Shown here one piece after another: positions 14,122-52,882 of a stretch of 64,000 bases of DNA. The notes under the pieces are model-generated. The model saw only the letters and a program-made list of their open reading frames with translations. It did no database searches and was not told where the DNA came from. Within the stretch, counting starts at the first letter, position 1; each line of letters opens with the position of its first letter. The position numbers and the translations under genes are program-made. The stretch is from Candidatus Nomurabacteria bacterium (GTDB lineage: Bacteria; Patescibacteriota; Minisyncoccia; Phycocordibacterales; JACOZG01). The DNA lies in assembly GCA_020847275.1 (NCBI GenBank), contig JADLCI010000001.1, positions 2,540 to 66,539 of the forward strand, written 5' to 3'.

Positions 14122-14440
14122 AAGCCAGGAGCGACAGAAACCAAAGCGTATTCACCACCCACTTTCTCTGCTCCTGTAAATAAAACAGAACCAAGACAAA
14201 GACAGCGAGATAAAACAGCGACCCAAGTAGCGCCACTGGAATACCGGCAACGGTGGAATAAATACTACTAGTGACAGTATCGCAACCATCAAGGAAAGAA
14301 CAAGGGATGGGAGCCCCGGTGTAATGTTTAATCGCCAGAAAAGTGGCGTCGGCAAAACCGAGAAAACTAAGCCCCAAGATTGTCAGTAATAAGTTTCTTG
14401 AATTCTTCATAACTCTGTGGGTTATTAATTCTTTTCCCAT
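13970..14440 (-). CDS. vitamin K epoxide reductase (VKOR)-family membrane thiol oxidoreductase
   Basis: 156 aa, about 4 TM helices, loop cysteines CSFLDGC and an active-site CQYC in the last helix. The 3' end overlaps the miaA 3' end convergently by about 150 nt. Confidence 0.7.
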   Translation of the reverse strand: MGKELITHRVMKNSRNLLLTILGLSFLGFADATFLAIKHYTGAPIPCSFLDGCDTVTSSIYSTVAGIPVALLGSLFYLAVFVLVLFYLQEQRKWVVNTLWFLSLLAFIASLVFVYLQGFVIGSWCQYCLVSALTSTLIFVLATVFARRVSTKSFVA

Positions 14441-15122
14441 TCAGAAAAAAGCTTGGTGTTGAATCAACACCAGAACTTACGCCACTCTGGAGATCTTGTT
14501 CTACCGCCTTCTTCACCATTGCGCTATCAATATCCTGCTCCAGTTTAGAAAGATTGAGACCAAGCGGTTGAAGCAACTTTACCAGCGTTTGACGGGCTAA
14601 AATTTGCTCGGACCAGAGTTTCTGGTTGTCAAAAATGATATCCGCCGCCAGCCAGAACTTACCCTGCAAACCGGCCGCCTCAACGACCTGAGAAGAAATC
14701 TGGGCATTAGCATGAATGGTCCGAAGTGGGAAATGGCGATAGACCACTACTAATTGTTCGTCGGCAAATTCGTCACGCAATTGCTTGATCCACGGAGCAT
14801 AAAAAGCGCAAGCTGGACACTGGAAATCACTATATTCAACTAACTGAACCTTGGCATCAAGGTTACCGTCGAGCCAATCAGCCTCCGTTACCGGAATCGA
14901 AAGCGCCCCATCGCTAGGTACACCGCCGGGCGGAGTGACTGTCGCTAGTTTATATAGACCAAAAACGGTACCCCCAAGAATCAAAATAGCCAGAATCCAG
15001 GGCCAAATGCCCCGTCCTGACCCAGAAGCAACTGGCCGTACACCCGCACCACCGCGCTCGGCACGCTTCAATTTCTGCTCCTGTTCGTATTGCTCCTTAG
15101 GACTTAATTGATTTTCTGCCAT
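14367..15122 (-). CDS. DsbA-family thiol:disulfide oxidoreductase (membrane-anchored)
   Basis: 251 aa; N-terminal TM, thioredoxin fold with a CPAC active site (SDFQCPACAFY) and a cis-Pro region. Confidence 0.8.
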   Translation of the reverse strand: MAENQLSPKEQYEQEQKLKRAERGGAGVRPVASGSGRGIWPWILAILILGGTVFGLYKLATVTPPGGVPSDGALSIPVTEADWLDGNLDAKVQLVEYSDFQCPACAFYAPWIKQLRDEFADEQLVVVYRHFPLRTIHANAQISSQVVEAAGLQGKFWLAADIIFDNQKLWSEQILARQTLVKLLQPLGLNLSKLEQDIDSAMVKKAVEQDLQSGVSSGVDSTPSFFLNGKRINNPQSYEEFKKLITDNLGA

Positions 15123-15145
15123 ATTTTCTATATCCTAACAGATAC

Positions 15146-15217
15146 GGGCCTGTAGTTTCAATGGTAAAACATCGGTCTCCAAAACCGAGGTTCCGCGTTC
15201 GAGTCGCGGCGGGCCCG
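15146..15217 (+). tRNA. tRNA-Trp (anticodon CCA)
   Basis: Acceptor GGGCCTG/CGGGCCC, anticodon stem TCGGT/ACCGA with loop CTCCAAA, T-arm CCGCG-TTCGAGT-CGCGG. Confidence 0.85.
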
Positions 15218-15219
15218 CC

Positions 15220-15378
15220 CTATTTCTTCGCTTCCTTATGACCCGTGTGCTTGCGACACCAGCGGCAGTGCTTCTTAATCTCAATCTTGCGTTCCACCAG
15301 CTTGCGATTCTTCCGACTCCAGTAATTAACCCGTTTGCAGGTTTGGCAAGCCAGCTTGATTAGTTGATCCTGTGACAT
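15220..15378 (-). CDS. rpmG: 50S ribosomal protein L33
   Basis: 52-aa minus-strand ORF missed by the ORF track: MSQDQLIKLACQTCKRVNYWSRKNRKLVERKIEIKKHCRWCRKHTGHKEAKK, with the L33 zinc-ribbon CxxC...CxxC pattern and the conserved KHT.HKE ending. Confidence 0.8.
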   Translation of the reverse strand: MSQDQLIKLACQTCKRVNYWSRKNRKLVERKIEIKKHCRWCRKHTGHKEAKK

Positions 15379-16842: not shown

Positions 16843-19521
16843 TTAGGCCGTAGACACAAGCCGTTTACCATTCGTTCGTAGTGTCCGTTTCTTCAATTCA
16901 ATTACCGGCTCACCATTCTTCATTTCTACCACGAGAACTCCCCCACTCTCGATTTTCCTCCCAATAATAAACTCCGCGACTTGATTAAGAATTTTATTTT
17001 GAATTAAACGCTTGAGCGGACGCACGCCATATTCAGAACTATAACCCTCGCGAGCGAGATAGGCCATTGTCTCCGTTGAGACTTCCAATTTGATCTGCTT
17101 GTGTGCTAAACGCCCCCTCACCAGCTGAAGCTGGATATCCACAATCTCCTTAATCGTCTCGGCCGGTAGCGGGTTGAAGATAATGATGTCATCCAGGCGG
17201 TTCAAGAATTCCGGGCGGAAGTGATTCTTAAGACTTTCCATGATGCGCTGTTTAGTTTCATTGTAATCAGTCTTCGCCGTGCCGTCACCACTAGAGAAAC
17301 CAATCTTTTGAAGTCGTTGGATATACTCACTGCCAATATTGGACGTGAGAATAATAATTGTGTTCTTGAAATTGACGACGCGACCCTTGCCGTCCGTAAG
17401 ACGGCCATTATCCAGGACCTGAAGTAAGATGTTGAAAACTTCCGGATTCGCTTTCTCAATTTCATCGAAAAGTAAAACGGCATAGGGCCGATGACGCACC
17501 GTTTCGGTCAATGACCCGCCCTCTTCGTAACCCACATAACCTGGTGGTGAACCGATAAGTTTGGAGATAGAATATTTCTCCATATATTCACTCATATCAA
17601 TCCGCACCAACGCCTTCTCATCGTCAAACATAAAGTGAGCAAGAGTACGAGCTAATTCGGTCTTACCAACACCGGTTGGGCCAAGCAAAATAAAGGAGCC
17701 AATTGGTCGATCTGGATCACCCACACCCGCGCGTGAACGCTTGACCGCCTCGGCGATTTTCTTAATTGCCTCATCTTGTCCACGAACCCGTTTGCGCAAC
17801 TCATCTTCAATCCGCGTCAGTCTCTGTGATTCTCCCTCCAACATTTTCGTCACCGGAATATGAGTCCAGCGCGCCACCACTTTGGCAATTTCTTCATCCG
17901 TTACTTCTTCCTTCAGAATCCGCCTGGAACTCTGCAGTTTCTTAAGCTTTAATTCCTTGACCTTCAAATCCTTCTCCAGCTGAGGGATTTTGCCATAACG
18001 AATCTCGGCCGCATGAGAGAGGTCGGCCCGCCATTCCGACTGTTCAGCCTCCAGGCGCGCCGTCTCTAAATCACGCTTCACCACTTTGATTTCGGAAATT
18101 ACCTCTTTCTCATTTTTCCACTTTAACTCCAATTCACGGACCTCTTCGCGGAGATCACTAACCTCTTTCTCAATCTTCTTAATCCTGGCCCTAGTTTGTT
18201 TATCATCCTTGAGAGATAGCTCTTTTTTCAATGCCTCCTTCTCAACCTCCAAACGCATAATCTTAGTATCCGTTTCCCCCAAGAGTTCTGGTTTGTTTTC
18301 TAGTTGTAAGCGAAGGGCTGAAGCCGCTTCATCAACCAGATCAATTGCCTTATCGGGCAGAAAGCGATCACTGATGTAGCGGGCAGAGAGCTGGGCCGCG
18401 GCAACAATTGCGCTATCGGTAATATGAACACCATGATGTGACTCGTAACGCTCCTTCAATCCGCGCAAGATCGTAATTGCGTCATCAACTGAAGGTTCTT
18501 CCACATGAACAGGCTGGAAACGACGAGTAAGTGCTTGATCCTTCTCAATATATTTCTGGTATTCCTTAATCGTTGTCGCCCCAATCGCCCGCAACTCACC
18601 TCGCGCCAATGCCGGCTTGAGCATGTTGGAAGCATCAATTGCCCCCTCAGCCGCACCAGCTCCCACAATCGTATGAATCTCGTCGATAAAGAGAATAAAC
18701 TTGTTACCAGAACGTTCTAGTTCTTTCAAAACCCCCTTCAATCGTTCCTCGAATTCACCACGATATTTTGTACCAGCGACAATCAAACCGAGGTCAAGTG
18801 AGACTAGCTCTTTATCTCGTAAAGATTCAGGTACATCATTTTTTGCAATCTTGATTGCTAAACCCTCCGCAATTGCCGTCTTTCCCGTTCCCGCTTCGCC
18901 AATCAGAATCGGGTTATTTTTTGTCCTTCGAGAAAGAATCTCCATCAAGCGTTGAATTTCCTCCTCTCTCCCAATGACCGGATCAAGCTTATCCGCCTTC
19001 GCTAATTCCGTTAGATTTTTTGTAAATTTTTCGATATTACGAAACTTCTTTGACTGGTCTACTTCATGTGTCTGGCTCATCCGCAACTCCTGCAAAACCT
19101 TCAACACCCTTTCCTTTGTCACACGGAAACGGGCCAGAATCTCGTGGGCTTGATTTGGTGTCTCGAGAAGACCAAGCAGAAGATGCTCCGTGGAAACAAA
19201 CTCGTCTTGCAAATTAGCGGCAATTTTTCCGGATGTATCAAAAACTTTCACCAATTCTGGTGTTAGATAAATCTGGTAAGCCGCCGAGAGTACCCCTGTC
19301 TGCTCACTACCCTCAAGACTTTCCACGACATAGTCTGTCAGCATTGCCGTGTCCACCTCAATTTTATCCAAAATGGAAACAAACATACTTTCCTCCTGCA
19401 GAAGAAGAGCGGCCAAGAGATGAACCGGGCCGACCTGATTCTGACCCCGCTCAATAGCGAGTTCATGCGTCTTCCGAATTACCTCTTTCGCTTTCGCTGT
19501 GAAGTTAGAAAATGGTGGCAT
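16843..19521 (-). CDS. clpB: ATP-dependent chaperone ClpB
   Basis: 892 aa; N-domain, D1 ([15 protein letters not shown]), long coiled-coil M-domain, D2 ([15 protein letters not shown]) and the C-terminal sensor. Confidence 0.95.
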
Positions 19522-24234: not shown

Positions 24235-24307
24235 TGGCCTAGTCGCCAAGTGGTAAGGCAAGAGTCTGCAAAACTCTTACGCGGCGGTTCGATTCCGCCC
24301 TAGGCCT
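24235..24307 (+). tRNA. tRNA-Cys (anticodon GCA)
   Basis: Acceptor GGCCTAG/CTAGGCC, anticodon stem AGAGT/ACTCT with loop CTGCAAA, T-arm GGCGG-TTCGATT-CCGCC; CCA is encoded. Confidence 0.85.
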
Positions 24308-24310
24308 CCA

Positions 24311-24394
24311 GCCCGGGTGACGTAATTGGTAGCCGTAACAGACTTAAAATCTGTTGCTCGAAAGGGCGTGTGGGTTCGAGTCCCACCCCGGGCA
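24311..24394 (+). tRNA. tRNA-Leu (anticodon TAA)
   Basis: Acceptor GCCCGGG/CCCGGGC, anticodon loop CTTAAAA, long variable arm, T-arm GTGGG-TTCGAGT-CCCAC. Confidence 0.85.
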
Positions 24395-24415
24395 CCTTGT
24401 TTCATTGAAATTCAG

Positions 24416-24487
24416 GCCCTGTTAGCTCAGTTGGTAGAGCAGTCGCCTCTTAAGCGAACGGTCGGGGGTTCGAATCCCTCACAGGGC
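24416..24487 (+). tRNA. tRNA-Lys (anticodon CTT)
   Basis: Acceptor GCCCTGT/ACAGGGC, D-arm GCTCAGTTGGTAGAGC, anticodon loop CTCTTAA. Confidence 0.8.
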
Positions 24488-24500
24488 ACAGTTTTTACAA

Positions 24501-24584
24501 GCCGAGGTGGCGAAATTGGCAGACGCACCAGCCTTAGGAGCTGGCGGGGGCAACCCCATGGAGGTTCAAGTCCTCTCCTCGGCA
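24501..24584 (+). tRNA. tRNA-Leu (anticodon TAG)
   Basis: Acceptor GCCGAGG/CCTCGGC, anticodon stem CCAGC/GCTGG with loop CTTAGGA, long variable arm. Confidence 0.85.
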
Positions 24585-24588
24585 CTAC

Positions 24589-24713: not shown

Positions 24714-25823
24714 ATGTTTGAGGTAAACTGGGCAAATATCTGGTCAACAACCACTCCATTCCTTTGGTGGTTCGGAATTCCTCTCATCACGGTTTTCCTG
24801 ATACTTCTGGTTAATCTGATGGCAAGGAACGATTTCATCATTGGGTTCGTCCCAGAGGGTCAAATCAAGGCGGTCTTAGCTGGTGATTCGTTACACAAAC
24901 TACTGGTAAATATCGGTGGTTATGATTACGATCGCGAGCTCAGAGAAATTACACCCAGCAGTAAGAAAAAACCATGGAGACCCTTTGGAATTTACTGGAT
25001 TGGCCTACCGCCATTCAAAAGTGTCCTACGTTATCCTTTCTCATGGGTAAAGTGGGATAAGCCGGAAGACTCAGCCCACTTTGCGCTGATTCCGCGGAAT
25101 CGAGAGATTGTCAGTTCCCTTTTCTTCCGGTATCCGTATGGCGTACAGGTCAGGGGCATCAGACTAAAAGGAAACATTGAGGTTGAAATCACACTTGTAG
25201 TCACACTCGAAATAGTTAGACCAGAAACAACCCTATTTCGGATCCAACCAACTGGTAATTGGCTCGGACTCGTTATAGCCAAAGTCGAAGAGGCTACTCG
25301 TGGTTGGGCTGGTGAAAAGGGAAACGAAGGGGAGGAGTTTGATGTTGAAAAACTTCGTTCCTTGGCCGCGAGAGAAGAAGGTGCCGCAGATGACCTGCGA
25401 ACACGAATTATGGAAATGAACGGGCATCCACCCACAGAGGGGTTGCCAGAATCAGCAGACGGCACCAGAAGACTTTGCGGTGTAGACATCATCTCTGTTG
25501 ATTTCCAGGGTTGGAAATTCGTCGACCCGGACGCTGAAAAAGCTTACCAGAGTGAGGAGATTGAGAATCGAGTGGCCGATGGCGTAAGAGCCAAAGCAGA
25601 CGGTGAAGCGGCCCGAATCGGAAAAGTTGGTGACGCCGAAGCAAGGGTCATCGCCGCCAAACTTAACGCCGCAGGTGGTAACCACACCCTGGCCGCGAGC
25701 CTGGCACAAGCAACAGCTCTGCAAGAAACCAATGTCAGAGTCCTGTCTCTTGCTGGTGGGACACCACCAATCAACACCATTCCGGTTGATGGACCAACAG
25801 CAGATGACACAAGGGAAGACTGA
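24714..25823 (+). CDS. SPFH/band-7 (flotillin/YqiK-like) membrane protein
   Basis: 369 aa; SD AGAAGGAGAAT; N-terminal TM, an SPFH beta/alpha core, and a C-terminal Ala/Glu-rich helical region (AEKAYQSEEIENRVADGVRAKADGEAARIG...). Confidence 0.55.
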   Translation: MFEVNWANIWSTTTPFLWWFGIPLITVFLILLVNLMARNDFIIGFVPEGQIKAVLAGDSLHKLLVNIGGYDYDRELREITPSSKKKPWRPFGIYWIGLPPFKSVLRYPFSWVKWDKPEDSAHFALIPRNREIVSSLFFRYPYGVQVRGIRLKGNIEVEITLVVTLEIVRPETTLFRIQPTGNWLGLVIAKVEEATRGWAGEKGNEGEEFDVEKLRSLAAREEGAADDLRTRIMEMNGHPPTEGLPESADGTRRLCGVDIISVDFQGWKFVDPDAEKAYQSEEIENRVADGVRAKADGEAARIGKVGDAEARVIAAKLNAAGGNHTLAASLAQATALQETNVRVLSLAGGTPPINTIPVDGPTADDTRED

Positions 25824-25972: not shown

Positions 25973-26146
25973 ATGTTTGAAAGTGTTGGGATTGTGTCCA
26001 TTGTGAGTGTTGTCTCAATACTCTATGGAGTATTGGGAATCCTCTGGTGTTTCCGGCGAGAAATCAAAACCACACTGCGTTTTCTACACAAATTATGGAA
26101 GGCTCGCAAAGAACTCTGGCAAAAAGCCAAGGAGGAAAACAAATGA
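25973..26146 (+). CDS. small membrane protein (57 aa), first gene of a two-gene operon
   Basis: SD AGAAGGAG; MFESVGIVSIVSVVSILYGVLGILWCF is one TM followed by a basic amphipathic tail; its stop overlaps the next start (ATGA). Confidence 0.45.
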   Translation: MFESVGIVSIVSVVSILYGVLGILWCFRREIKTTLRFLHKLWKARKELWQKAKEENK

Positions 26147-26817
26147 CGAGAAAGATTCTTTTACTTTCGTCTGTCGTGGCGATAATGATGGGTAGTTTTT
26201 TTCTTTTCTCAAATGGCACAAGAAAAGCTGTTGTCCCGTCACCACCGGCCATAGAAACTAACAACCCCTTAAACCTGGCAGAGAAACTTGTCACCATATC
26301 TCTAATTGGGCTTCTAGTGGCAATCGGACTTCTGGCGATCTACAGAATGTGGAAAATAACCAGAGGTAACCATGACAAACAGGATAAAGACAAAAATGGG
26401 GAGGACAGAAAATCGACACCGATCAACTGGAAGTGGGTCGGGAAAACAGCGGGAAGTTTTGTCTTACTCATTCTGCTTGTTCTTGGTGGTTACTGGCTAT
26501 ACACCAGCGATCAATCAATCACCGGTCGGTGGGCACGGCCACAACAAACGAACCGAGGCCGTGTTGGCACCCTTGGCTGGGACGAACTGATCGCAACAAG
26601 CGATGCGTGGTCCAGACCAACGAAACCGATCCCCGGTGATTGTGACTTCCAGATCCACGAGGACGGAGACGGCTGGATCAAGTTTCCCAACGGGGAAATC
26701 CATGAGATTGGACCAATGGTTCTGGTTAATTGGCCAGATATCCCAAGGGGAAGTTTCCAGTTCAAAGCCAAGGAAGGGTCAATCAAGGTTAAGGTCGTCT
26801 GGCAACCGAGGCGCTAG
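26143..26817 (+). CDS. hypothetical membrane protein (3 predicted TM helices plus a C-terminal soluble domain)
   Basis: 224 aa from the ATG at 26143 (SD AAGGAGGAAAA); TM helices at about 10-30, 75-97 and 130-150; the C-terminal 70 aa are hydrophilic. Confidence 0.5.
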   Translation: MTRKILLLSSVVAIMMGSFFLFSNGTRKAVVPSPPAIETNNPLNLAEKLVTISLIGLLVAIGLLAIYRMWKITRGNHDKQDKDKNGEDRKSTPINWKWVGKTAGSFVLLILLVLGGYWLYTSDQSITGRWARPQQTNRGRVGTLGWDELIATSDAWSRPTKPIPGDCDFQIHEDGDGWIKFPNGEIHEIGPMVLVNWPDIPRGSFQFKAKEGSIKVKVVWQPRR

Positions 26818-26823
26818 AGACCA

Positions 26824-26877
26824 AAACCCCCCAGTCATTGTTGCGCGATGCAACGATGACGGGGGGTTTTATTTTTT
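26824..26877 (+). terminator. long GC hairpin terminator between convergent genes
   Basis: CCCCCC...GGGGGG stem of about 18 bp followed by TTTTATTTTTT. Confidence 0.65.
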
Positions 26878-26886
26878 CCAGAATAT

Positions 26887-27159
26887 TTATCTCGTAACCG
26901 TAATATAAATTAGACTGAGAATACCTTTAACCGAGAAAATGATGAAGAGACCGATCACCCCGTAGAGAACATGCTGTTGACCCTTCTTCCGTTCTTCTTC
27001 ATTCGCCGCCCCCATCACCATCTCGTAAACCCCATAGAGGAACATCCCGAGAGAGGCGGCGGCCAGCAACAAGATTAGCGGATCGACAATTGCTTTATTA
27101 ATCCGATCCAGAATCGGCAAATTGGTAGCCGCAGAAGCAGTCTTAACCAACCAATTCAT
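26887..27159 (-). CDS. VirB2/TrbC-like pilin-family small membrane protein (paralog 5)
   Basis: 90 aa; two hydrophobic helices separated by a charged loop (EEERKKGQQ). Confidence 0.5.
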   Translation of the reverse strand: MNWLVKTASAATNLPILDRINKAIVDPLILLLAAASLGMFLYGVYEMVMGAANEEERKKGQQHVLYGVIGLFIIFSVKGILSLIYITVTR

Positions 27160-27534
27160 TTAGAAGCCCTGAGGTGGAGGAACTGTAGGAATCTGGGTTG
27201 GACGATTGGCCCCGCCGAAGTTAAACGTCCCACCAAGCACATTGACCAAACCCCAGACCGAGACCATCACGAAGAGAGCGATAACACCGTAGATCATTGT
27301 GGAACGGCCAGCCGCCTTTTTCTCATCGTCACCACCAGCGGTAACATACTGAAGAACACCCCAAAGGAAATACACGACCCCCAGACCAATTATCAGCGGG
27401 ATGATGTAGTTATTGATTAAGCGAATAATCGTAGCAAAACCACCTTCAAGACTAGTCACACTCTGAGCCAGAGCAAACACCGGAAGAGCAAGGGTTAGAC
27501 CAGAAACAGAAACTTGCTTGAAAAACTTGTTCAT
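27160..27534 (-). CDS. VirB2/TrbC-like pilin-family protein (paralog 4, with signal peptide)
   Basis: 124 aa; signal peptide ...ALA-QS, TM1, loop GGDDEKKAAGRS, TM2 MIYGVIALFVMVSVWGLVNVLGGTFN. Confidence 0.55.
   Translation of the reverse strand: MNKFFKQVSVSGLTLALPVFALAQSVTSLEGGFATIIRLINNYIIPLIIGLGVVYFLWGVLQYVTAGGDDEKKAAGRSTMIYGVIALFVMVSVWGLVNVLGGTFNFGGANRPTQIPTVPPPQGF
27221..27298. repeat. gene-conversion tract shared by pilin paralogs 3 and 4 (copy 1)
   Basis: 61 bp identical to 27604-27664 (TTAAACGTCCCACCAAGCACATTGACCAAACCCCAGACCGAGACCATCACGAAGAGAGCGA), with partial identity continuing. Confidence 0.8.
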
Positions 27535-27557
27535 TTATTTTTATTAAACTATTAATA

Positions 27558-27842
27558 CTATCTGTCGGAAAGCGACGGCACGGGGAGAGAATTATTGTCG
27601 AGATTAAACGTCCCACCAAGCACATTGACCAAACCCCAGACCGAGACCATCACGAAGAGAGCGACAATTCCATAGATCATCATCTTCCTCCCCTCTTCTC
27701 GGTCGTCATCACTACCCGATTGCCTAACATATTTTAGCACGCCCATCAAAAAGTACGCAACCGCAACCGCCAAGAACAAGTAGGAAAGCGGATTAAGGAC
27801 CTTCGTAATCAATGTATTCACCAAATAAGCGAAATCTTTCAT
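27558..27842 (-). CDS. VirB2/TrbC-like pilin-family protein (paralog 3)
   Basis: 94 aa; same two-helix topology; TM2 is identical to paralog 4 over about 26 aa. Confidence 0.55.
   Translation of the reverse strand: MKDFAYLVNTLITKVLNPLSYLFLAVAVAYFLMGVLKYVRQSGSDDDREEGRKMMIYGIVALFVMVSVWGLVNVLGGTFNLDNNSLPVPSLSDR
27604..27680. repeat. gene-conversion tract (copy 2)
   Basis: See 27221-27298. Confidence 0.8.
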
Positions 27843-27850
27843 AAATTATT

Positions 27851-28186
27851 TTATCGTCCGACCTCTAAACTAGTAATCGTATTCTCAATAACACTGGAAA
27901 TCACGAACGCCCCAAGCACAATTGCTGCGCCAATCACAACCGTTAGAAGAGCGTTCTTGGCCTTCTTCAGACCATCCTCACTGCCACGAGCAGAGACAAA
28001 CAGGAAGCCGACGTAAACCACGGCTAGGACCAAAATTGGCATCCCCACCTGGATAATAATCTCCAGGATCTTATTCACCAAATCACTCAAACTGTTAACG
28101 TTAATCGGGTTGCTTATTAGACCGCCGGATCCAGTATTCCCTGTTTGCTGCTGTGCGTGAGCAACGAGTAATTTCCAAGTAGACAT
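27851..28186 (-). CDS. VirB2/TrbC-like pilin-family protein (paralog 2)
   Basis: 111 aa; two TM helices separated by the loop ARGSEDGLKKAKN. Confidence 0.5.
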   Translation of the reverse strand: MSTWKLLVAHAQQQTGNTGSGGLISNPINVNSLSDLVNKILEIIIQVGMPILVLAVVYVGFLFVSARGSEDGLKKAKNALLTVVIGAAIVLGAFVISSVIENTITSLEVGR

Positions 28187-28204
28187 TAGTTTAATCCTAA
28201 CATT

Positions 28205-28609
28205 TTAATTACCAAGTGGCACCACTCGTTCGATACTACTACGAAATTCAGGCTTAATTAAAGATTTCACGATTGTGGTAACAATCAACCAGGCCCCAAT
28301 GACTAAAACGAGCCCAATGACCGCCGCTTCAATAATCTCCTTACCTTCAGTCCGTTTCCCTTCTTTACCTGGATTACTGGCCATAATAATACCAGCGTAA
28401 ACAATTGCGATGGTGGCCACCGGCACAGCCAATGTAAAAACGAAATACTTAATAATCTTGTCGAGAAGAATGAAGAAATCTGCCGCACCACAATCGTCAC
28501 CAGCACAAGTGGGAACCAGCGGCGCTTGAGCGTATGCAAGAGTCGCCACTCCCAAGAAGCCAACTAGACAAAGGGAAACGACAAGGACTTTAATTGCTGA
28601 TGTTCTCAT
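28205..28609 (-). CDS. VirB2/TrbC-like pilin-family protein (paralog 1, with signal peptide)
   Basis: 134 aa; signal peptide ...LAYA-QA, TM1, loop NPGKEGKRTEGKE, TM2. Confidence 0.55.
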   Translation of the reverse strand: MRTSAIKVLVVSLCLVGFLGVATLAYAQAPLVPTCAGDDCGAADFFILLDKIIKYFVFTLAVPVATIAIVYAGIIMASNPGKEGKRTEGKEIIEAAVIGLVLVIGAWLIVTTIVKSLIKPEFRSSIERVVPLGN

Positions 28610-29924
28610 CTCGGCGTGGTAACAAATTTTCTAATTCTATATCGGCATTACTAATTGCCCGATCGGCATCGACCTGGCCAAGTGCAATTGACTCTGCTAG
28701 ACGACGAAAAATTGCCTGCGTCTTGCTTGGATCTGGATCTAGCCAGTCACGAGCAAGAATTGCGGCCTGATAGAGCACGGCCAGATTGGGATCCGACGGT
28801 GCTTTGGTAAGCAAATCATTGCGCGCTGGTGGTAAGCCAACCGCACCCGCAATCATCGCGCCAAACTTACTGCCGGCGAGTATGGTGGAAACAAGATAGG
28901 CCGTCGTCGGATTCTTAGCGCCAAGGGGAATACCGAGAAAATAAAACCGCCCGAGCGTAACTTGCTTTGCGCCCACGTCACGCTGCGGCGGCAGTGTTAG
29001 ATAAAAATTGAGTTGCGGATTCTGTACCGCCAGGCGTGAAAGCTCGCTTCCGAAACCAAAGTAGAGAGCAAGGCGACCGCGAAGAAATGCCTCGAGTGCT
29101 TCCGGCTGGGAGCTATTCCAAGCATAAAGGGTATTAGTCGGATCAGTAAAACGAAGAAAAAAGGCAACCGCTTCGCCGGCCGGCGCCTTATTGAAACCAA
29201 GCGAATCTTTTAGCGTTACGGTCGGGAAACCATTGCTACGGGCGACGATTGGATTGCCGGCTTGGATGAAAAGTAGCGAGAGCAATTCCTTGGCATGTGT
29301 AATATTACTAAAAGAACCTATCGCCATCGCTGCCTGATTAATATTTCCCCGACCATCAGCTTGTGTGAGTAATTTAATCGCCGGTGCTAAATCCTTCCAT
29401 AAACGAGGGACCAGTGGCAGCTTAGCGTTAGTCAGCAAATCTTGATTATAATAGAGAACCAGTGGGTCAACATAAATCGGTAGACCGATCACGCCGTTTG
29501 ATCCAAACATGAGTTCCCAATCTTTCAAACTAGTCCCCAATACAAAAGTGTCTTTAAAAGATTGTCGAGAAATTGAGGCATAGGGAATCGGCTGAAGTTT
29601 TGCTTCCTGTCGTAAAAGTTGATCCGAGGCAAGGGTAACCAAGTCTGGTCCGCGACCGAGGGCTAGAGCCTCCACCAAATCGTTCTCAATAGTTTCGGGA
29701 TTTTTCTCAACATATTGTAGGGTGAAATCACCGTCATGTTCACGACTAATCTGATTCAACATCTCCCCCAAACTATCTTCAGGAATTGTCCCCCACCACA
29801 CAACTAACCCCCCTGTTCCTCCTTCCGGCGCACGAAAACCCGGCAAAACACCAGCAAAGACAAGCACGCCAACAATGAGCGCGACGATAAAAGCTCCGAC
29901 AATTGTCATCTGAAAGCCGTTCAT
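28590..29924 (-). CDS. membrane-anchored extracellular solute-binding protein (ABC-type, family 1-like)
   Basis: 444 aa; N-terminal TM anchor and a periplasmic-binding-protein-like bilobed domain typical of sugar-type SBPs. Confidence 0.55.
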   Translation of the reverse strand: MNGFQMTIVGAFIVALIVGVLVFAGVLPGFRAPEGGTGGLVVWWGTIPEDSLGEMLNQISREHDGDFTLQYVEKNPETIENDLVEALALGRGPDLVTLASDQLLRQEAKLQPIPYASISRQSFKDTFVLGTSLKDWELMFGSNGVIGLPIYVDPLVLYYNQDLLTNAKLPLVPRLWKDLAPAIKLLTQADGRGNINQAAMAIGSFSNITHAKELLSLLFIQAGNPIVARSNGFPTVTLKDSLGFNKAPAGEAVAFFLRFTDPTNTLYAWNSSQPEALEAFLRGRLALYFGFGSELSRLAVQNPQLNFYLTLPPQRDVGAKQVTLGRFYFLGIPLGAKNPTTAYLVSTILAGSKFGAMIAGAVGLPPARNDLLTKAPSDPNLAVLYQAAILARDWLDPDPSKTQAIFRRLAESIALGQVDADRAISNADIELENLLPRRDENISN

Positions 29925-30487
29925 GGTTGTCTAGAATTTTTCTGGAACATTAGACCATAATGATGCTCCCCGGCCGGAAAATCGTTTAGAAAAGTCATTT
30001 CTGCTTGTGCGCCAATCTCCTTAACCTCTTCTGGGTGAACTACTCTATCCTCCGCGGGACCGAGATTCCCAAAGGAGCCTGACCACTCTACCACAGCTAG
30101 ACGACCCCCAGCTCTCAAGACCCGTTTCGCCTCTAATATCATCGTATATTTTGCATCAGACTGAAAGAGGATGTTGGCCAGTAGAACAAGATCGGCAACG
30201 CCGTCGCGAAGACCCGTACCGCCAATCTTATCGACATCGCCATGAACAATCTTGAGGTTGTTGATTCGCTGAGTCTTGACCTCCCTAGCTAACCGTTCAA
30301 GCAAAACCTGCTGAACTTCCACAGCATAAACCAACCCCGTAACACCAACCTGACGAGCCATTGCCAAACTATAAGCCCCAGACCCAGACCCAAAGTCCAC
30401 GGCCCGATTACCCTCTACTAAACCAAGTCTCTTCACATTCTCAATTGGATCGGAGAACATGGAGAAATTATAACACAGACTAATCAC
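29921..30487 (-). CDS. class I SAM-dependent methyltransferase
   Basis: 188 aa (possible internal start at 30460); motif I VDFGSGSGAYS, acidic motif II and LVLLANIL. Confidence 0.7.
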   Translation of the reverse strand: MISLCYNFSMFSDPIENVKRLGLVEGNRAVDFGSGSGAYSLAMARQVGVTGLVYAVEVQQVLLERLAREVKTQRINNLKIVHGDVDKIGGTGLRDGVADLVLLANILFQSDAKYTMILEAKRVLRAGGRLAVVEWSGSFGNLGPAEDRVVHPEEVKEIGAQAEMTFLNDFPAGEHHYGLMFQKNSRQP

Positions 30488-30494
30488 GAAAACC

Positions 30495-32936
30495 CTACAA
30501 AAACGCCAGCGAAGCTAAATGATCCTTCTCTCGAAGTTTCATAATGCGCACTCCTTGTGTTTGACGGCCAAGTGTCGAGATCTCCCCGAGCGCTGTACGA
30601 ATTACTTGCCCTTGTTTACTCATTGCCACAATTTCGCTTTCTTCTGGATAGATTACTTTTCCCGCCACAAGTTTACCTGTTTTCGCTGTTAACTGGGCTG
30701 TTTTGATACCAGAACCTCCACGCCTTTGAGTTTTATATTCAGATAGTTTTGTTTTTTTGCCATAACCATTTTCGGTCATCACGAGAAAGGTGCTATCGCG
30801 ATGTGAAGACTTAATCACACTTGCGCCAACAACCTCATCATTCTTTTTCAGTTTAATCCCCCTCACACCGCCAGCCGCCCGGCCCATCTCGCGAATATCT
30901 TTCTCAGTAAAACGAATCGACTGCCCAGCGGAGGAAGCCACGATCACCTCATCACCAGTTTCCACCAACAGGACGGAGAGCAATGCGTCTCCTGGACTTA
31001 GCTTGATGGCCATAATACCACTGCGTCGCACATCCGAGAAACTCTCACCGGAAACCTTTTTTGCCACGCCATTCTTGGTCAGCATTATTAAACCCGCCTT
31101 CTTCCCCTTCTGTCCCTTGGGAATAGACAGAACGGAAGTAATCTTCTCGTCATCAGCGAGTGGCAAGAAATTCATCACCGACTTACCACGAGTCGCCCTT
31201 TTACCTTCTGGTAAATCATACATTTTCAATTGATAGGCCTTGCCACGATTGGTAAAGAAAAGCATGTCGCTATGGGTATTGGCAGAAAGTAAAATTGTCA
31301 CAAAATCCTCCTCCTTCACATTCAGATCTACAACTCCCACTCCACCACGTCGCTGGGCCCGGTATTCGGAAGGATCGGTTCTTTTAATATAGCCGCCGGC
31401 CGTAACCACCAAAACATTTTCTTTCTCTGGCACAAGATCCTCGGTGTTAATCTCCCCCGCCGCATGTTTAATTACTTTAGTTTTGCGAGGTTTACCATAT
31501 TTCTGGATAATCTCAGTAAACTCTTGTTTAATCACCCCACGAATCTTCTCGTCACTAGCAAGAAGGGCCTTCAGTTCTTTGATCAACGCTTGCTTCTCCT
31601 TCAATTCTTCCAAAATTTTCTTAATTTCTAAACCAGCCAATCGCTGCAACTTCATCTCCAAGATAGCCACAGCCTGCCTGTCAGAGAACTTAAACTTACT
31701 TATCAAGTTCGTCTTTGCCACATCAGCGTCAGTCGACTTCTTGATTGTTGCAATAATCTCGTCAATGATATCAATGGCTTTCTTCAGGCCGAGCAGGATG
31801 TGTTCGCGCTCTTCAGCACGAATGAGATCAAACTTCGTCCGACGAGTTATAATCTCCCGCCGATGTTTGATAAACTCTTCTGCCACATCACGAAGCGAGA
31901 GCAAGCGCGGGACACCATCTACTAACGCCAACTGATTGTAGTGAAAAACTGTTTCTAACTCCGTGTTTTTATATAAAGCATTTACAATTTTCTGTGGGAA
32001 AGCACCGTTCTTCAAATCGATTACGATGCGCATATTATCAAGAGTAGTGGATTCATCGCGCATATCTCTAATCCCCTCAAGCTTCTTCTCCCGCACCAGA
32101 TCAGCAATCTTTACAATAAGATCCGCCTTGTTGACCTGATAAGGAATAGAGGTGATTACAATCTGAAAAGAGCCTGATTTGTGCTCGACGATCTCTGTCT
32201 CACCGCGCACCAGAACACCGCCACGACCAGTGGCGCTCGCATGAGCAATATCTTTTTCGTTGAAAATAAGTCCGCCCGTTGGAAAATCCGGACCCTTCAC
32301 AAATTTTAACAAGTCGTCAGTGGTCGCCTCGGGGTCATCTACCAAATGGGTGAGCGCCGACATAACCTCAACCAAATTGTGTGGCAAAATTTTGGTTGCC
32401 ATACCAACAGCAATCCCGACGGTACCGTTGATTAATAAATTAGGAATGACTGAGGGCATTACTGTCGGCTCAGTTCTTGTGCCATCGTAATTAGGCGCAA
32501 AGGTAACGGTGTCCTTATCGATGTCACGCAGTATTTCTGCTGTAAGCGGTGCCATTTTGATCTCGGTATAACGCATCGCCGCCGGTGGGTCGCCATCAAT
32601 GGAGCCGAAGTTACCCTGACCAACGGCCAGAGGATGGAGCATTGAAAAATCTTGAGCTAAACGAACCAGCGCATCGTAACAAGCGGTATCGCCGTGAGGA
32701 TGGTATTTGCCGAGCACATCGCCGACAACCAAAGCCGACTTGCGAAATTTCGCCGCTGCACCTAGACCCAGCTCGTTCATCGAATGGAGAATCCGTCGGT
32801 GAACTGGTTTCAGTCCATCACGCACATCGGGAAGCGCGCGCGCGACAATTACACTCATCGCGTAATCAATGTACGAATCTTTCATCTCGCGGACAATGTC
32901 CACGCCGACTATTTTGTTAGTATCAGAGTTTTCCAT
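30495..32936 (-). CDS. gyrA: DNA gyrase subunit A
   Basis: 813 aa; catalytic-Tyr region (AAAMRYTE), the GyrA box and a C-terminal beta-pinwheel. Confidence 0.95.
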
Positions 32937-46559: not shown

Positions 46560-47813
46560 TTAACGAGAACGATTAAGGATTGTGGTAAGTTGCTGAAGAG
46601 TGTTGAGAAGTTGCAGGTTGGGTGTAAAAGCACCACGAACTTGAGCAATAGCGGGGCGAGACGAACGATTGCGCAGGGCAATCAAGAGTTTGGCAAACAA
46701 TTCACCAAGATCAACATCGCCAGTAAAGGCACCCAAGACTTGCCCCGTTACCGGAGGAACAGGTTGCCCAACGAAGCCACCACCGCCACGAGTACCACCC
46801 CCACCACCGCCACCGGAAGTAGAAGTTGGAGGAGTTACCACGGGAGGAATCTCCGGTTCTGGAGTGTCATCTACCGGTTCAGATAAAACTACCTCAATGC
46901 TATCGCTGACCGGTTCGGAAATATTGTTGTAAACATCCCTGCAACGATATTCTGCAGTGTAAGTTCCCTCCTCAAGCGGACCGAAAATGTACTCTGTGTC
47001 CATTGGATCCAACGTTCCATTGTCTCCCCAATCTTGGGTAGATAAACGAATTTCGCAGTACTGAATCTCCGTGTCATCCGTTCCGGACGAGAAGTTTGCC
47101 ATCACTAATCCTGTATTGTTTTGAGCTGCGCCACCATCCAACTCTAGACTTAGTCCAGTTGGTGGCATTGTATCAGTCGGTTCAACTGGAACTGATACTT
47201 CTATAGATTCTTCCGCGCTAGAGTAATTCCCGGCATTGTCGTAACAAATAAGAAATGTTGGGTACAAACCGTCTCCAGGAAATGAGTGAACAACTGGGCC
47301 ATCTGCAAGAATTTCCTCTTCAGGAGTTCCATCTGCCCAGTCCATCACACAGGTATTAAGTCCTGAACCATCGTCAGTCCCCCGAGTAAGTACCACAGAA
47401 ACATCGGTTGAATTTGAAATTGGGCCACCTACAAAATCAATATCTGTACCCGCTGGCGCAACAGTATCAACAGTGATTTCGGTTTCGATTGAATTGGCAA
47501 GCGATTCTCCGTTAAAGCAAACGAGGGATACGGTGTAGGTGCCATCGTTTGAATATCCGTGGTTGACTAAGCCTGGTGTGACCTCTTCAGCGCTTCCGTC
47601 GGCCCAGTCGATCTCACAAACGATTATCCCCGATTCTGGATCAGTTGCTTCAACAACCGCACTGACGGTTCCGGTATTGTTGTATTGGGCACCGCCGTCT
47701 AGTGTAAGCGAAACTTCAGGAGGGGTTGCGTCGGCCACTCCCGCTGAAGCTTGACCGGCAAGAAAGACTGATAAAATGAGAGCGGTAACCAAAAAAGCCT
47801 TATTTTTAAACAT
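46560..47813 (-). CDS. secreted repeat protein (three Ig/PKD-like repeats, Gly-run, amphipathic C-terminal tail)
   Basis: 417 aa; signal peptide, three repeats each about 100 aa (DxTPP...LDGGA.NNTG...C...DWADG), then GGGGGGGTRGGGG. Confidence 0.5.
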   Translation of the reverse strand: MFKNKAFLVTALILSVFLAGQASAGVADATPPEVSLTLDGGAQYNNTGTVSAVVEATDPESGIIVCEIDWADGSAEEVTPGLVNHGYSNDGTYTVSLVCFNGESLANSIETEITVDTVAPAGTDIDFVGGPISNSTDVSVVLTRGTDDGSGLNTCVMDWADGTPEEEILADGPVVHSFPGDGLYPTFLICYDNAGNYSSAEESIEVSVPVEPTDTMPPTGLSLELDGGAAQNNTGLVMANFSSGTDDTEIQYCEIRLSTQDWGDNGTLDPMDTEYIFGPLEEGTYTAEYRCRDVYNNISEPVSDSIEVVLSEPVDDTPEPEIPPVVTPPTSTSGGGGGGGTRGGGGFVGQPVPPVTGQVLGAFTGDVDLGELFAKLLIALRNRSSRPAIAQVRGAFTPNLQLLNTLQQLTTILNRSR

Positions 47814-48833: not shown

Positions 48834-48973
48834 AATTGTTTAGCTATTTACTTAATAACATTTAATAACCAGACTATCATAGCATGAAAGTACCCCGCTA
48901 GCGACTACCACGGTAGAGACAAACAATGATTAAACCCTTTCGGTCTAATCATTGTCGTTATATAATATGCAAC

Positions 48974-50374
48974 ATGAAATCACTTCTACTTCTAACTGTT
49001 CTCGTTTTTGGATTTTTTATCCCCCTTGCAAATGCCTCCGTCGTTCCCACATTTTCCGTTTCCAGTAACGGTTACAATGCGCTAGCCACCGTCCACGGCG
49101 ACCCAAACACCGCCGTAGAACTTCACTACGGCAATTCTGCCGAAAACATAAACACTATCGGCACCACAGACTCAAACGGTAATTTTTCTACCCCACTAAG
49201 TGTCTCAAGCTACCAATTCGGTTGTGGAAAAACGGCCTATGTGAGAGTTGGCACTTATCAATCTGCCACTATCCCTTGGTCACTCAATAATAGCTCCTGC
49301 CAAAGCCTCGCCCTTAGTCAAACTAATGTTTCTCTCAATCCCGGACAAAGCACCATCATTACCGCCACGATTAGCGGTGGTCTGTATGTCTCCAGTAACT
49401 CCAACCCGAGTGTGGCCGGCGCTAGCGTGAGTGGCAACCAGATTACCATCACCGCCGCCAGCTACGGCACAAGCAATCTTACCGTCTGCACCACCAATGA
49501 AATGTGCGGAGTTATAAACATCACCACCAATGCTCCTGGCGCCAACGCCGGTAGCAACCTCTCCTTTAGCCAAACTAATGTTGAGGTCAATGTGGGACAG
49601 AGCAGTGTTGTCACCATTTATGGTTCGGGCAACAATTACACTATTCCAACCAACTCCAACCCCGCCACCGTCTCTACCTCTCTAAGTGGGAATGTCCTCA
49701 CTCTCACGGGCCTTGCTTTCGGAGGCTCTAATGTCACGATCTGTCAGAATAATAATCAGTGTGGGGTGGTCTATGTCATTGTGGTTAATAATCCAGCCTT
49801 GACCGGTACTTATACCAACAACGCCGAGCCCACAATTACCTCTCTCAATATTAGCTCCGACAATGTTGGCGGAGAATTCATTAAGGCTGGCAATCGCCTG
49901 ACCATTACCTTCAATACCAATAAACCAATAAGTAACCCGCTGATGCTCGTTGGTCTTACTCGAGTTAACCTAACAGGAAGCGGCTCTGGTCCTTACCTCG
50001 GCACATACTCCGTCACAAGCAATAATCCACTGCCTCTCATTATCACTTTCAGCGATTCCTCAGGTCGAAGCGGTCGAGCAACCCTCACTTTGGGAGATTG
50101 GTCAGCCCCATCAAATATCTCGAACAGCCCGATCACCACACCAACTCCCGGGCCCCGCTACACCTTCTCAACCTTCTTAGGCGTTGGTGATAACGGCAAA
50201 ACGGTGACTGAATTACAAAAACGCCTGACCGAACTAGGTTTCTACCACGGTCCCACCAACGGCAACTTTGGACCCCTAACTGAAGCGGGGGTAACGGCGT
50301 TACAGAGGGCCAACGGGATAAAATCCGTTGGGTATGTCGGCCCAGCCACACGGGCCATCTTGAACCAGTATTGA
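48974..50374 (+). CDS. secreted protein with Ig-like repeats and a C-terminal peptidoglycan-binding (PG_binding_1) domain
   Basis: Start trimmed to MKSLLLLTVLVF (signal peptide; -10 TATAAT just upstream). The C-terminus KTVTELQKRLTELGFYHGPTNGNFGPLTEAGVTALQRANG matches the PGBD helical-repeat motif. Confidence 0.6.
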   Translation: MKSLLLLTVLVFGFFIPLANASVVPTFSVSSNGYNALATVHGDPNTAVELHYGNSAENINTIGTTDSNGNFSTPLSVSSYQFGCGKTAYVRVGTYQSATIPWSLNNSSCQSLALSQTNVSLNPGQSTIITATISGGLYVSSNSNPSVAGASVSGNQITITAASYGTSNLTVCTTNEMCGVINITTNAPGANAGSNLSFSQTNVEVNVGQSSVVTIYGSGNNYTIPTNSNPATVSTSLSGNVLTLTGLAFGGSNVTICQNNNQCGVVYVIVVNNPALTGTYTNNAEPTITSLNISSDNVGGEFIKAGNRLTITFNTNKPISNPLMLVGLTRVNLTGSGSGPYLGTYSVTSNNPLPLIITFSDSSGRSGRATLTLGDWSAPSNISNSPITTPTPGPRYTFSTFLGVGDNGKTVTELQKRLTELGFYHGPTNGNFGPLTEAGVTALQRANGIKSVGYVGPATRAILNQY

Positions 50375-51748: not shown

Positions 51749-52121
51749 TGGTGGAGATGGCGGGAATCGAACCCGCGTGCAAAAGGTTGACCTAAATTGT
51801 TCTACATACTTATCTCACTTTAAATTTTCGCCAACGCGACTCGAAATGAGCCAAACATCGCGCCAGTTAGCATCTTAGTTTTGAATTCGTGCCGATGCGA
51901 TCATGAATTCTAGCTCGCGAGTATAACACCCCTAGCCAGTCAGCAAGCGAGACCGGTAGAGACGCCGAGTTAAGCTAAAGCGAAACTCGGAACAGCGAAG
52001 TACGGTGAAACCGTACCGCCCTGCTTAGCCGTAGTTTTGGCAAGTAGATTTTACCTTTTGATTAACGAGAGTAAGGCGCTCTCGGTATGCCCAAAATGAG
52101 GACCGTCCAATTGTCTAGGCC
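51749..52121 (-). ncRNA. ssrA: tmRNA (SsrA)
   Basis: The 5' end is GGGGAUGAUCGGCCUAGACAAUUGGACGG and the 3' end is GCGGGUUCGAUUCCCGCCAUCUCCACCA (tRNA-Ala-like acceptor with a G3:U70 pair and encoded CCA). An internal tag-like reading frame ends ...AVPSFALA-UAA. It begins 14 nt downstream of the smpB stop. Confidence 0.8.
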
Positions 52122-52134
52122 GATCATCCCCGTT

Positions 52135-52593
52135 TTAAAAGCGACTTTTCAAAGTCCGATCAAGGTCTCGTTTATTCTCCCGTTTTTTAATCTTCTCACG
52201 CTTATCATACTTTTTCTTCCCCCGTGCAAGCGCAAGACCAAGCTTCAAACGACCGCCTTTATTATATACTGATAATGGAATGATTGTCAATCCCCGCTCA
52301 CCAATTCTGGCCGCCAAATCGCTAATTTCTTTTTTCGTCAGCAGAAGTTTCAGGGCTCGCCCTTTCTCGTAGTCTGGTGGCAAATTCGCCGCCTGATAAG
52401 GACTAATTTCTGCACCCACCAGGAAGGCCTCCCCTCCGCGAACCAAGACTCGTCCACCCTCTAGCTTACCTCGTCCCAGTTTGAGTGCCTTTACCTCAAA
52501 TCCGGATAATTCTAAGCCAGCCTCTAGTTTTTCTAAGAGTTCGTAGTCGTAGTGCGCTTTCGGGTTATTCACAAGATTAGACATTGTCCCCAT
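52135..52593 (-). CDS. smpB: SsrA-binding protein
   Basis: 152 aa from the ATG at 52593 (MGTMSNLVNNPKAHYDYELLEK...GFEVKALKLGRGKLEGG...ISPY...KLLLTKKEI...GLTIIPLSVY). The ORF-track N-terminal extension to 53085 is not SmpB-like. Confidence 0.85.
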   Translation of the reverse strand: MGTMSNLVNNPKAHYDYELLEKLEAGLELSGFEVKALKLGRGKLEGGRVLVRGGEAFLVGAEISPYQAANLPPDYEKGRALKLLLTKKEISDLAARIGERGLTIIPLSVYNKGGRLKLGLALARGKKKYDKREKIKKRENKRDLDRTLKSRF

Positions 52594-52638
52594 TGTAGCA
52601 TTGCGCTTACAGCGTCTTCTAGTATATACTACTGTCCT

Positions 52639-52878
52639 ATGACTAAAAATAAAAAGAAAGGGTTTGGTCTTGGTAGTTTGATTGTTATCATCGCTTTGGT
52701 GCTCATTGTTGGCGCCTACATGTACTACCGCGGCGATAATGCCGTTCCAGTCAGCGAGACAACAGTCGAGACTACCTACCCGCCCACCGCTTCTGATATT
52801 CCTGCCGGTCAGATGGAGCAGGGAGATGAAGCTGTGGTAACCGAACCTACGGGCACCACCACGCCGGTTAAGAATTAA
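52639..52878 (+). CDS. small membrane-anchored hypothetical protein
   Basis: 79 aa from MTKNKKKGFGLGSLIVIIALVLIVGAY (one TM), followed by an acidic, Thr-rich tail. Confidence 0.35.
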   Translation: MTKNKKKGFGLGSLIVIIALVLIVGAYMYYRGDNAVPVSETTVETTYPPTASDIPAGQMEQGDEAVVTEPTGTTTPVKN

Positions 52879-52882
52879 GCCT

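Follow-up and report, generated by a model that had tools for sequence, protein, structure and literature searches.

The 64,000-nt stretch of DNA analyzed here (the window) comes from a metagenome-assembled genome (MAG) of Candidatus Nomurabacteria, in the Parcubacteria group of Patescibacteria, and contains an array of five small genes on its minus strand at positions 26887–28609. We hold with moderate confidence that these genes encode a fixed, non-redundant set of VirB2-like pilins of a chromosomal Patescibacteria type IV secretion system (T4SS), co-expressed with a dedicated solute-binding protein (SBP) that resembles MalE. Judged from their sequences, they appear to form a VirB2-like pilin array of a kind already described in Patescibacteria, so that the kind is not new; the cassette of SBP, pilins and gyrA, together with the fixed order of pilin classes, is modestly new.

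Genes and family of the pilin array

As the first-pass annotation of this DNA had described, the list of open reading frames (ORFs) contained five successive, tightly packed minus-strand genes. They were named classes 5, 4, 3, 2, and 1 in the order in which the window genes are transcribed:

28205–28609, minus strand: pilin class 5 (134 aa), first gene of the array
27851–28186, minus strand: pilin class 4 (111 aa), second gene of the array
27558–27842, minus strand: pilin class 3 (94 aa), third gene; leader absent, two transmembrane (TM) helices
27160–27534, minus strand: pilin class 2 (124 aa), fourth gene; two TM helices and a Pro-rich tail
26887–27159, minus strand: pilin class 1 (90 aa), last gene; short leader

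The 94-aa class 3 protein was 100% identical to the GenBank class 3 protein IT398_00205, from a Candidatus Nomurabacteria MAG. Kyte-Doolittle profiles revealed two hydrophobic segments with a short charged loop between them in all five proteins, and the AlphaFold2 model of class 3 (pLDDT 74.8, with 56 homologs in the alignment) had a helix at residues 3–40, a turn, and a second helix at residues 45–78, in agreement with the two-helix-plus-charged-loop architecture that had been claimed. In place of the two signal peptides predicted at first pass there were signal-peptide-like N-terminal hydrophobic segments, ending in AYA↓Q in the 134-aa class 5 protein and in ALA↓Q in the 124-aa class 2 protein. 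The leaders of classes 4 and 1 carried the same AxA↓Q motif and were just 9–12 aa long, that of class 4, a protein with two TM helices, ending in VAHA↓Q. In VirB2, the leader is removed at an Ala-X-Ala↓Gln-type site.

Class 5 had two TM helices and, in the mature part, a Cys pair (VPTC...DC); this N-terminal pair was conserved. Class 1 orthologs had a conserved C-terminal Cys pair (e.g., LVCATINCR) that the window copy has lost (LIYITVTR), the orthologs compared being those at the related loci L001 (12869–13150), L002 (10705–10977), L005 (8743–9021), and L006 (10751–11047). A gene for a DsbA-like thioredoxin was located in the window at 14367–15122.

All five window genes matched the family PF18895 (T4SS_pilin) above its gathering cut-off of 26.6 bits, with 33.3, 45.8, 47.8, 32.9, and 42.6 bits for classes 1 to 5, respectively. 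The same was true for 25 of 25 orthologs from five genomes, for all of which PF18895 was the top match and the other families were below their own cut-offs. The TrbC/VirB2 family PF04956 (cut-off 27.9 bits) was matched by 8 of the 25 orthologs at E ≤ 0.001, with a best E-value of 2.9e-8, and an ortholog at L012 passed the cut-off with 30.8 bits; in the window, classes 4 and 5 scored 27.2 and 23.0 bits, both under it, and the other three genes were unmatched. The NCBIfam Mbov_0395 pilin-like conjugal transfer family was matched at sub-threshold level only, and homologs are annotated as “pilin” at NCBI and JGI. The VirB2/TrbC-type homology proposed at first pass was upheld through PF18895 for every gene, with PF04956 adding to it in some of the orthologs and closely approached by window class 4.

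Arrays of this kind have been catalogued in a search of 3,035 Patescibacteria genomes with PF18895 and PF04956, which found 441 arrays of 2–11 pilin genes with a mean within-array identity of 25% and a maximum of 54% (PMC12102498; Quinonero-Coronel et al., 2025). That survey defines an array as at least two pilin genes in tandem or one non-pilin apart, in a Patescibacteria genome that also encodes VirB4; the five contiguous window genes have this arrangement, with no VirB4 in the 64 kb of the window. Their paralogs were 16–49% identical, the highest value being that of class 2 versus class 3. That such arrays are characteristic of Patescibacteria, as the first-pass annotation stated, agrees with the survey and with PMC10633639, and reviews consider pilin arrays a hallmark of the Patescibacteria T4SS, of unknown function (PMC11665869; PMC12857230).

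Orthology, class order, and the 61-bp tract

Related loci were fetched via homologs of the SBP and of the pilins (L001, L002–L004, L005, L006, and L014). They contained the same five genes in the same order, the L014 contig ending inside class 3, and identity across genomes was 50–64% within a class versus 11–45% between classes. Class 5 orthologs were found at L001, L002, L005, L006, and L014. dN/dS was limited to classes 5 and 4, which could be compared with the closest relative, L014, without saturation (dS about 0.8–1.2), and was 0.047 for class 5 and 0.033 for class 4, versus 0.036 for the SBP (91% identical between L014 and the window) and 0.011 for gyrA. These results point to a stable, ordered set of one-to-one orthologous pilins under strong purifying selection, and not to the variable surface filament suggested at first pass.

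Class order was determined for 48 complete arrays by assigning each gene to the best of five whole-protein class profiles, with a median margin of 19 bits over the second-best class; this replaced an assignment that split proteins into partial domain matches and was too noisy. Class 5 was first in 41 of the 48 arrays, class 4 second in 40, and class 1 last in 46. Classes 2 and 3 occupied 116 of the 119 middle positions in one to five copies, and class 2, the class that varies in copy number, made up 91 of the 119 middle genes. Complete arrays at the metagenome loci had 4–8 pilin domains (mode 5–6), the commonest class pattern, 5-4-3-2-1, being that of the window itself. By these profiles, class order is fixed as 5-4-(2/3)n-1, with copy-number variation in classes 2 and 3 only.

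Tandem fusions of class 5 and class 4 were found at L012 (11332–12138), L028 (8439–9263), and L035 (1673–2485) and explain four-gene arrays; they suggest that the two fused subunits are neighbors in the assembly. Single mid-array genes with two pilin domains in tandem occurred at L062, L064, L089, and L094, and the linker in genes with two pilin domains was Pro-rich or short. Other pilin-domain proteins were greatly extended, at L011 (11355–13604, 749 aa; 14179–15252, 357 aa), L013 (11351–12703, 450 aa), L040/L042 (11320–12726, 468 aa), L066 (7557–8684, 375 aa), L073 (3871–5397, 508 aa), and L082 (3254–4306, 350 aa). The large N- or C-terminal extensions were rich in Ser, Thr, Asn, and Cys, had no Pfam match, and could represent adhesin-like surface domains carried by pilin subunits. 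VirB2 and TraA lie in the membrane with both termini outside, and the fusions and extra terminal domains all fit both pilin termini being outside the cell.

The third and fourth genes (94 and 124 aa) had been reported at first pass to share 61 bp of perfect identity, which was exact at both sites:

27604–27664, minus strand: copy of the 61-bp tract in the class 3 gene (TM2 region), exact repeat
27221–27281, minus strand: copy of the 61-bp tract in the class 2 gene (TM2 region), exact repeat

The 26-aa identical TM2 reported with it was overstated, since the identical peptide run is 20 aa (ALFVMVSVWGLVNVLGGTFN) and the 26-aa stretch is identical at 24 of 26 positions. The tract was the sole exact repeat of at least 25 nt in the window, and 61 straight matches at a DNA identity of ~0.70–0.77 would arithmetically occur by chance with a probability of about 1e-7. 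Over the 81-nt TM2 segment, DNA identity between classes 2 and 3 was 0.93 in the window versus 0.70–0.77 in other genomes, and identical codons were used at 18 of 21 conserved residues versus 4–9 of 16–18. The longest exact match between the two classes was 8–23 bp in four related genomes. The TM2 peptide common to both was conserved in every genome compared, and the DNA was identical in the window alone.

Because the relatives share only 8–23 bp, differ at synonymous sites, and conserve the peptide equally, the 61-bp identity is best read as the product of one brief conversion event that is confined to this lineage and hardly changed the protein. The earlier claim of ongoing concerted evolution was not supported by the four relatives, and the picture that emerged from the selection and recombination analyses is one of strong purifying selection with one 61-bp tract in one lineage. 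Class 2 was the probable donor and class 3 the acceptor because two residues of window class 3 (V65 and N79), located inside the tract or at its margin, are of the class 2 type. The conversion is datable only to after the split from the L005 lineage, since the contig of the closest relative, L014, ends inside the class 3 gene and is without class 2. Nucleotide-level selection on an embedded RNA or regulatory element was rejected as the cause of the identity, because other genomes do not conserve the DNA there.

The solute-binding protein and its genomic context

The membrane-anchored SBP that had been noted as the neighbor of the array is encoded by a gene that overlaps the first pilin gene and belongs to a longer string, at whose far end lies a hairpin:

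28590–29924, minus strand: MalE-like membrane-anchored SBP (444 aa), 20-nt overlap with the class 5 gene
29921–30487, minus strand: class I S-adenosylmethionine-dependent methyltransferase, co-directional, 4-nt overlap with the SBP gene
30495–32936, minus strand: gyrA, head of the co-directional string
26822–26871, no strand assigned: GC-rich hairpin with A-run and T-run flanks, between class 1 and the convergent gene at 26047–26817

The SBP matched SBP_bac_8 and SBP_bac_1 in Pfam. Its AlphaFold2 model (pLDDT 88, pTM 0.85) had a TM helix at residues 3–24 and a type II binding-protein fold, and the best Foldseek matches of the model were maltodextrin/oligosaccharide-binding proteins at E about 1e-22. 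The family included 939 representatives at E ≤ 1e-30 that aligned from residue 1, and the TM anchor was conserved across it, with F4 and F23 present in at least 90% of sequences. ABC permease genes were absent from the listed neighborhoods of 11 related loci, and no permease of the BPD_transp type was found among the window ORFs.

In 11 of 11 contexts reached via pilin or SBP homologs, down to an SBP identity of 31%, the SBP gene had gyrA upstream and a pilin array downstream; the methyltransferase usually sat between gyrA and the SBP gene in these contexts and was found in most, not all, related loci. A metagenome scan with the SBP alignment gave at least 576 relatives, from which 80 loci were kept. 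Among those with at least 500 nt of downstream sequence, 69 of 71 had a same-strand pilin ORF directly after the SBP gene; the gap had a median of 2 nt, and the two genes overlapped in 27 of the 69. Where at least 3.5 kb of upstream sequence was present, gyrA was found there in the same orientation in 42 of 42 loci. The near-universal adjacency of SBP and pilin genes, often with overlapping stop and start codons, is a conserved cassette. The link is unmentioned in the survey PMC12102498, as far as its text was available, and in the wider literature searched, of which coverage is incomplete. In-frame fusions of the SBP with a class 5 pilin were also found (P0131, at L010 10001–11653, and P0132; 549–550 aa); the two were well diverged from each other, P0131 was seen in three samples, and its pilin signal-peptide core was degenerate. 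The gyrA–SBP context is not used by all Parcubacteria pilin arrays, as at L008 4916–5955, on a Campbellbacteria-like contig, three PF18895 genes follow mreB-mreC-mreD-PBP2 without an SBP.

In the window, gyrA is separated by 7 nt from the methyltransferase gene, which overlaps the SBP gene by 4 nt, and this in turn overlaps class 5 by 20 nt; the pilin genes then follow with gaps of 18 nt (class 5 to class 4), 8 nt (to class 3), 23 nt (to class 2), and 0 nt (to class 1), the class 1 start codon coming immediately after the class 2 stop. The pilin genes are the tail of this operon-like, co-directional gyrA-methyltransferase-SBP-pilin string. Scans for sigma-70 promoters and simple terminators gave counts no better than chance, and the hairpin was found by reading and folding the sequence. 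It had a folding energy of -32.1 kcal/mol (z = -7.25), none of 200 shuffles being equally stable, and is a probable bidirectional intrinsic terminator closing the transcription unit.

Beyond the hairpin lies a convergent pair of plus-strand genes (24714–25823 and 26047–26817) that had no Pfam match and was syntenic in close relatives. The first encodes a membrane-anchored protein of 369 aa, at whose position L007 has a Band_7/SPFH protein; the second encodes a two-TM protein of roughly 225–256 aa. As a candidate part of the module the pair was left out, having been recovered in just 3 of 31 distant loci by single-sequence searches. Four tRNA genes (Cys, Leu, Lys, Leu) lie at 24236–24585 on the plus strand, between rbfA and the SPFH-like gene, and the ORFs listed across them are artefacts.

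The window is otherwise ordinary chromosome, with gyrA, topA, infB, secY-adk-map, serS, hisS, ftsA, and tgt, and also encodes two Clp-type ATPases, glycoside hydrolases, nine tRNAs, and one tmRNA. The tmRNA (51749–52131, minus strand) adjoins a long ORF at 52135–53085 whose C-terminal part is SmpB-like. Next to an FtsQ-like gene, 3178–5574 (minus strand) encodes a Clp-like AAA+ protein of 798 aa that has hydrophobic segments near its N-terminus and confident Pfam matches for the second ATPase module alone (AAA_2, ClpB_D2-small); it is an unusual membrane-associated Clp relative, and a canonical ClpB is encoded at 16843–19521. The product of 54584–55723 (minus strand) also seems to be an orphan binding protein, anchored at its N-terminus and encoded away from any transporter genes; by eye it resembles the Leu/Ile/Val-type (Peripla_BP_6) receptors, and proteins annotated as Peripla_BP_6 occur upstream of gyrA at L002, L006, and L014. 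Two secreted repeat proteins, at 46560–47813 (minus strand) and 48926–50374 (plus strand), are probably cell-surface proteins unlinked to the array; one has PKD domains and the other a C-terminal peptidoglycan-binding domain with a weak T2SS-T3SS_pil_N match.

Proposed assembly, alternatives, and known systems

In the T4SS reading stated at the outset, the subunits would span the membrane so that both termini face outward, signal peptidase would trim four of them at the conserved AxA↓Q site, and a VirB4/VirB6 machine encoded elsewhere in the genome would extract and assemble them into a heteromeric surface filament or conduit. Classes 2 and 3 would make up the bulk of the structure, because only they vary in copy number, and classes 5 and 4 together with the SBP may form a specialized end or adaptor that would bind a glycan or oligosaccharide, either displayed by the host cell or derived from it. 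The 61-bp identity would be a by-product of one short gene conversion, probably from class 2 to class 3. A location apart from the machinery has precedent in the survey, where a pilin gene was near virB4 in only 1135 of 1948 VirB4-containing assemblies and the VirB4/VirB6 genes of Paceibacteria lay near dnaA (PMC12102498). In the T4SS cluster of Southlakia epibionticum, the predicted pilin series is essential (PMC10633639; Wang et al., 2023). Among the entries listed there, SEML1_0014–0016, 0018, and 0019 are annotated as PF18895 and SEML1_0017–0019 were growth-defective or essential by transposon sequencing (Tn-seq), which fits non-redundant subunits.

Several observations weigh against this reading. 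VirB4, VirB6, VirD4, and VirB11 were all absent from the 64-kb window (of a 66.6-kb contig); Pfam scans of ambiguous ORFs and inspection of ORFs of at least 180 aa confirmed the first-pass observation that the window has no secretion ATPase or assembly gene, its only large ATPases being the Clp-type AAA+ proteins. For this genome the absence tells little, given the short contig. Of the unassigned ORFs within 10 kb of related arrays, the ten largest included no T4SS ATPase and were identified as LigA, RpoB, a P-type ATPase, UvrB, three UvrA, a Mur ligase, FtsH, and an ABC exporter; separation from virB4 is therefore a general property of the cassette. Dependence of the pilins on a T4SS ATPase is an assumption, and the shaft and tip roles come by analogy alone. 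A T4SS pilus has so far been seen in no Patescibacterium (PMC12857230; PMC11665869). Foldseek of the class 3 hairpin model against the PDB returned nothing at E ≤ 0.001; archaeal conjugative pilins came up only as matches 14 and 28 in rank. When PDB sequences were searched with a profile, no pilin was returned. The matches of both searches were non-specific helical ones, because a two-helix hairpin is too simple for such methods; the searches were set aside as evidence either way, and family membership therefore rests on sequence profiles. SBP–pilin fusions were rare (2 of 75 homologs) and absent from the 80 metagenome loci and the 150 best representatives, and the junction in P0132 still contains a short hydrophobic stretch, so that this fusion may be a read-through artefact.

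A bolder possibility, advanced tentatively, is that the gyrA-linked SBP–pilin cassette of Parcubacteria/Paceibacteria is a distinct organelle module, in which the SBP, as a glycan-binding protein, would be physically attached to or docked at the leading subunit of a heteromeric VirB2-type assembly with the order 5-4-(2/3)n-1. It would provide these episymbionts with a tip or gate specific for a ligand, used to attach to hosts or capture nutrients, and might work without the VirB4 ATPase.

The main rival, a self-contained, VirB4-independent membrane or surface module exapted from T4SS pilins, seems rather unlikely to us. Its subunits would form a membrane-embedded oligomer or a short structure assembled by Sec/YidC and, with the orphan SBP, a receptor or uptake device for host-derived oligosaccharides. 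The position beside gyrA, with no T4SS ATPase within 10 kb at the loci checked, speaks for such a module, as do an SBP with a confident maltodextrin/oligosaccharide-binding fold and no nearby ABC permease or ATPase partner, a TM anchor conserved like an interaction surface, and the existence of SBP–pilin fusions. However, all subunits belong to PF18895 and some match TrbC/VirB2, in Saccharibacteria the homologous array and the T4SS cluster that contains it are both essential, VirB4 occurs widely in Patescibacteria and is frequently encoded far from the pilins (PMC12102498), and SBP-dependent transport through two-helix pilin-like subunits has no known precedent.

That the paralogs are interchangeable major pilins for antigenic or host-range variation, partly homogenized by ongoing conversion, is improbable and largely refuted. 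The idea was raised as speculation in PMC12102498, and the high divergence of the paralogs, the existence of a conversion tract, and the differing copy number of classes 2 and 3 between genomes are compatible with it. Against it stand the one-to-one orthologs in fixed order in related genomes, dN/dS values of 0.03–0.05, as for the neighboring SBP, and the single tract, in one lineage and in a segment already conserved at the protein level in all genomes; the phenotypes of individual SEML1_0017–0019, among the Tn-seq entries listed, also argue against redundancy. We give almost no credence to the genes being unrelated small two-TM proteins matched through hydrophobic composition, since, despite many weak matches to unrelated TM families beside the pilin match and a non-specific fold search, the curated PF18895 cut-off was passed by 25 of 25 orthologs with other families below theirs, homologs are called pilins by NCBI and JGI, and the essential pilins encoded at the T4SS locus of S. 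epibionticum are of this family.

Few systems have been shown to be indispensable to a Patescibacterium living as an epibiont, and the T4SS with its pilin series is one of them (PMC11665869; PMC12857230). The locus adds no new kind of system to these, and its comparative analysis yields testable constraints: the pilin paralogs appear to make up a set that is fixed, ordered, and non-redundant, as opposed to a repertoire for variation; class 2/3, the only one varying in copy number, is likely the bulk subunit; and in the Parcubacteria lineage there is genetic coupling between the pilins and an oligosaccharide-type binding protein. If this coupling reflects a physical complex, it would point to what the apparatus recognizes, and the SBP ligand would offer a way to study how hosts are recognized in a group of which hardly any members have been cultured.

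Compared with known systems, the SBP has the fold and Pfam domains of the MalE/SBP_bac_1 proteins of ABC importers, and differs from them in having no permease or ATPase genes nearby, a TM anchor instead of a lipobox, and coupling to pilin genes via overlapping stop and start codons, with occasional fusion. In type IV pili and in the pseudopili of type II secretion, minor pilins likewise form sets of distinct small subunits in fixed order in one operon, some of which carry or recruit a large extracellular adhesin domain, with one class likely being the bulk; their fold is unrelated and their assembly machinery is another, and they serve as a working analogy and not as homologs. The VirB2 arrays of Bartonella and Anaplasma, for which antigenic or host-adaptive variation has been proposed, are also tandem pilin paralogs of host-associated bacteria, whereas the window paralogs are ancient, orthologous across species, under purifying selection and in fixed order, which points to different roles and not to interchangeable variants.

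The conjugative pilins VirB2, TrbC, and TraA of Gram-negative T4SS are likewise small and have two hydrophobic helices with a short charged loop, and profile similarity to them is at or near threshold; the Ala-X-Ala↓Gln-type site at which the VirB2 leader is removed has putative counterparts in four of the five window pilins. Their systems have one major pilin, encoded inside a virB/trb/tra operon beside VirB3/VirB4, and a diderm envelope, whereas the window array has five distinct subunits, three of them with no leader or a very short one, in a monoderm and apart from the machinery: no virB3/virB4 cluster location of the TrbC/VirB2 type was found in the 64-kb window or among the large ORFs within 10 kb of the related arrays. 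There is also a likeness to the VirB2-like arrays of other Patescibacteria, which are chromosomal tandem genes of PF18895 (some PF04956) with low paralog identity and no relaxase nearby. The S. epibionticum array lies inside its T4SS cluster, while that of the window lies by gyrA with no T4SS gene in 64 kb; and an SBP gene goes unmentioned for the published arrays, whereas arrays of the window type are preceded by a MalE-like SBP gene and keep a fixed class order.

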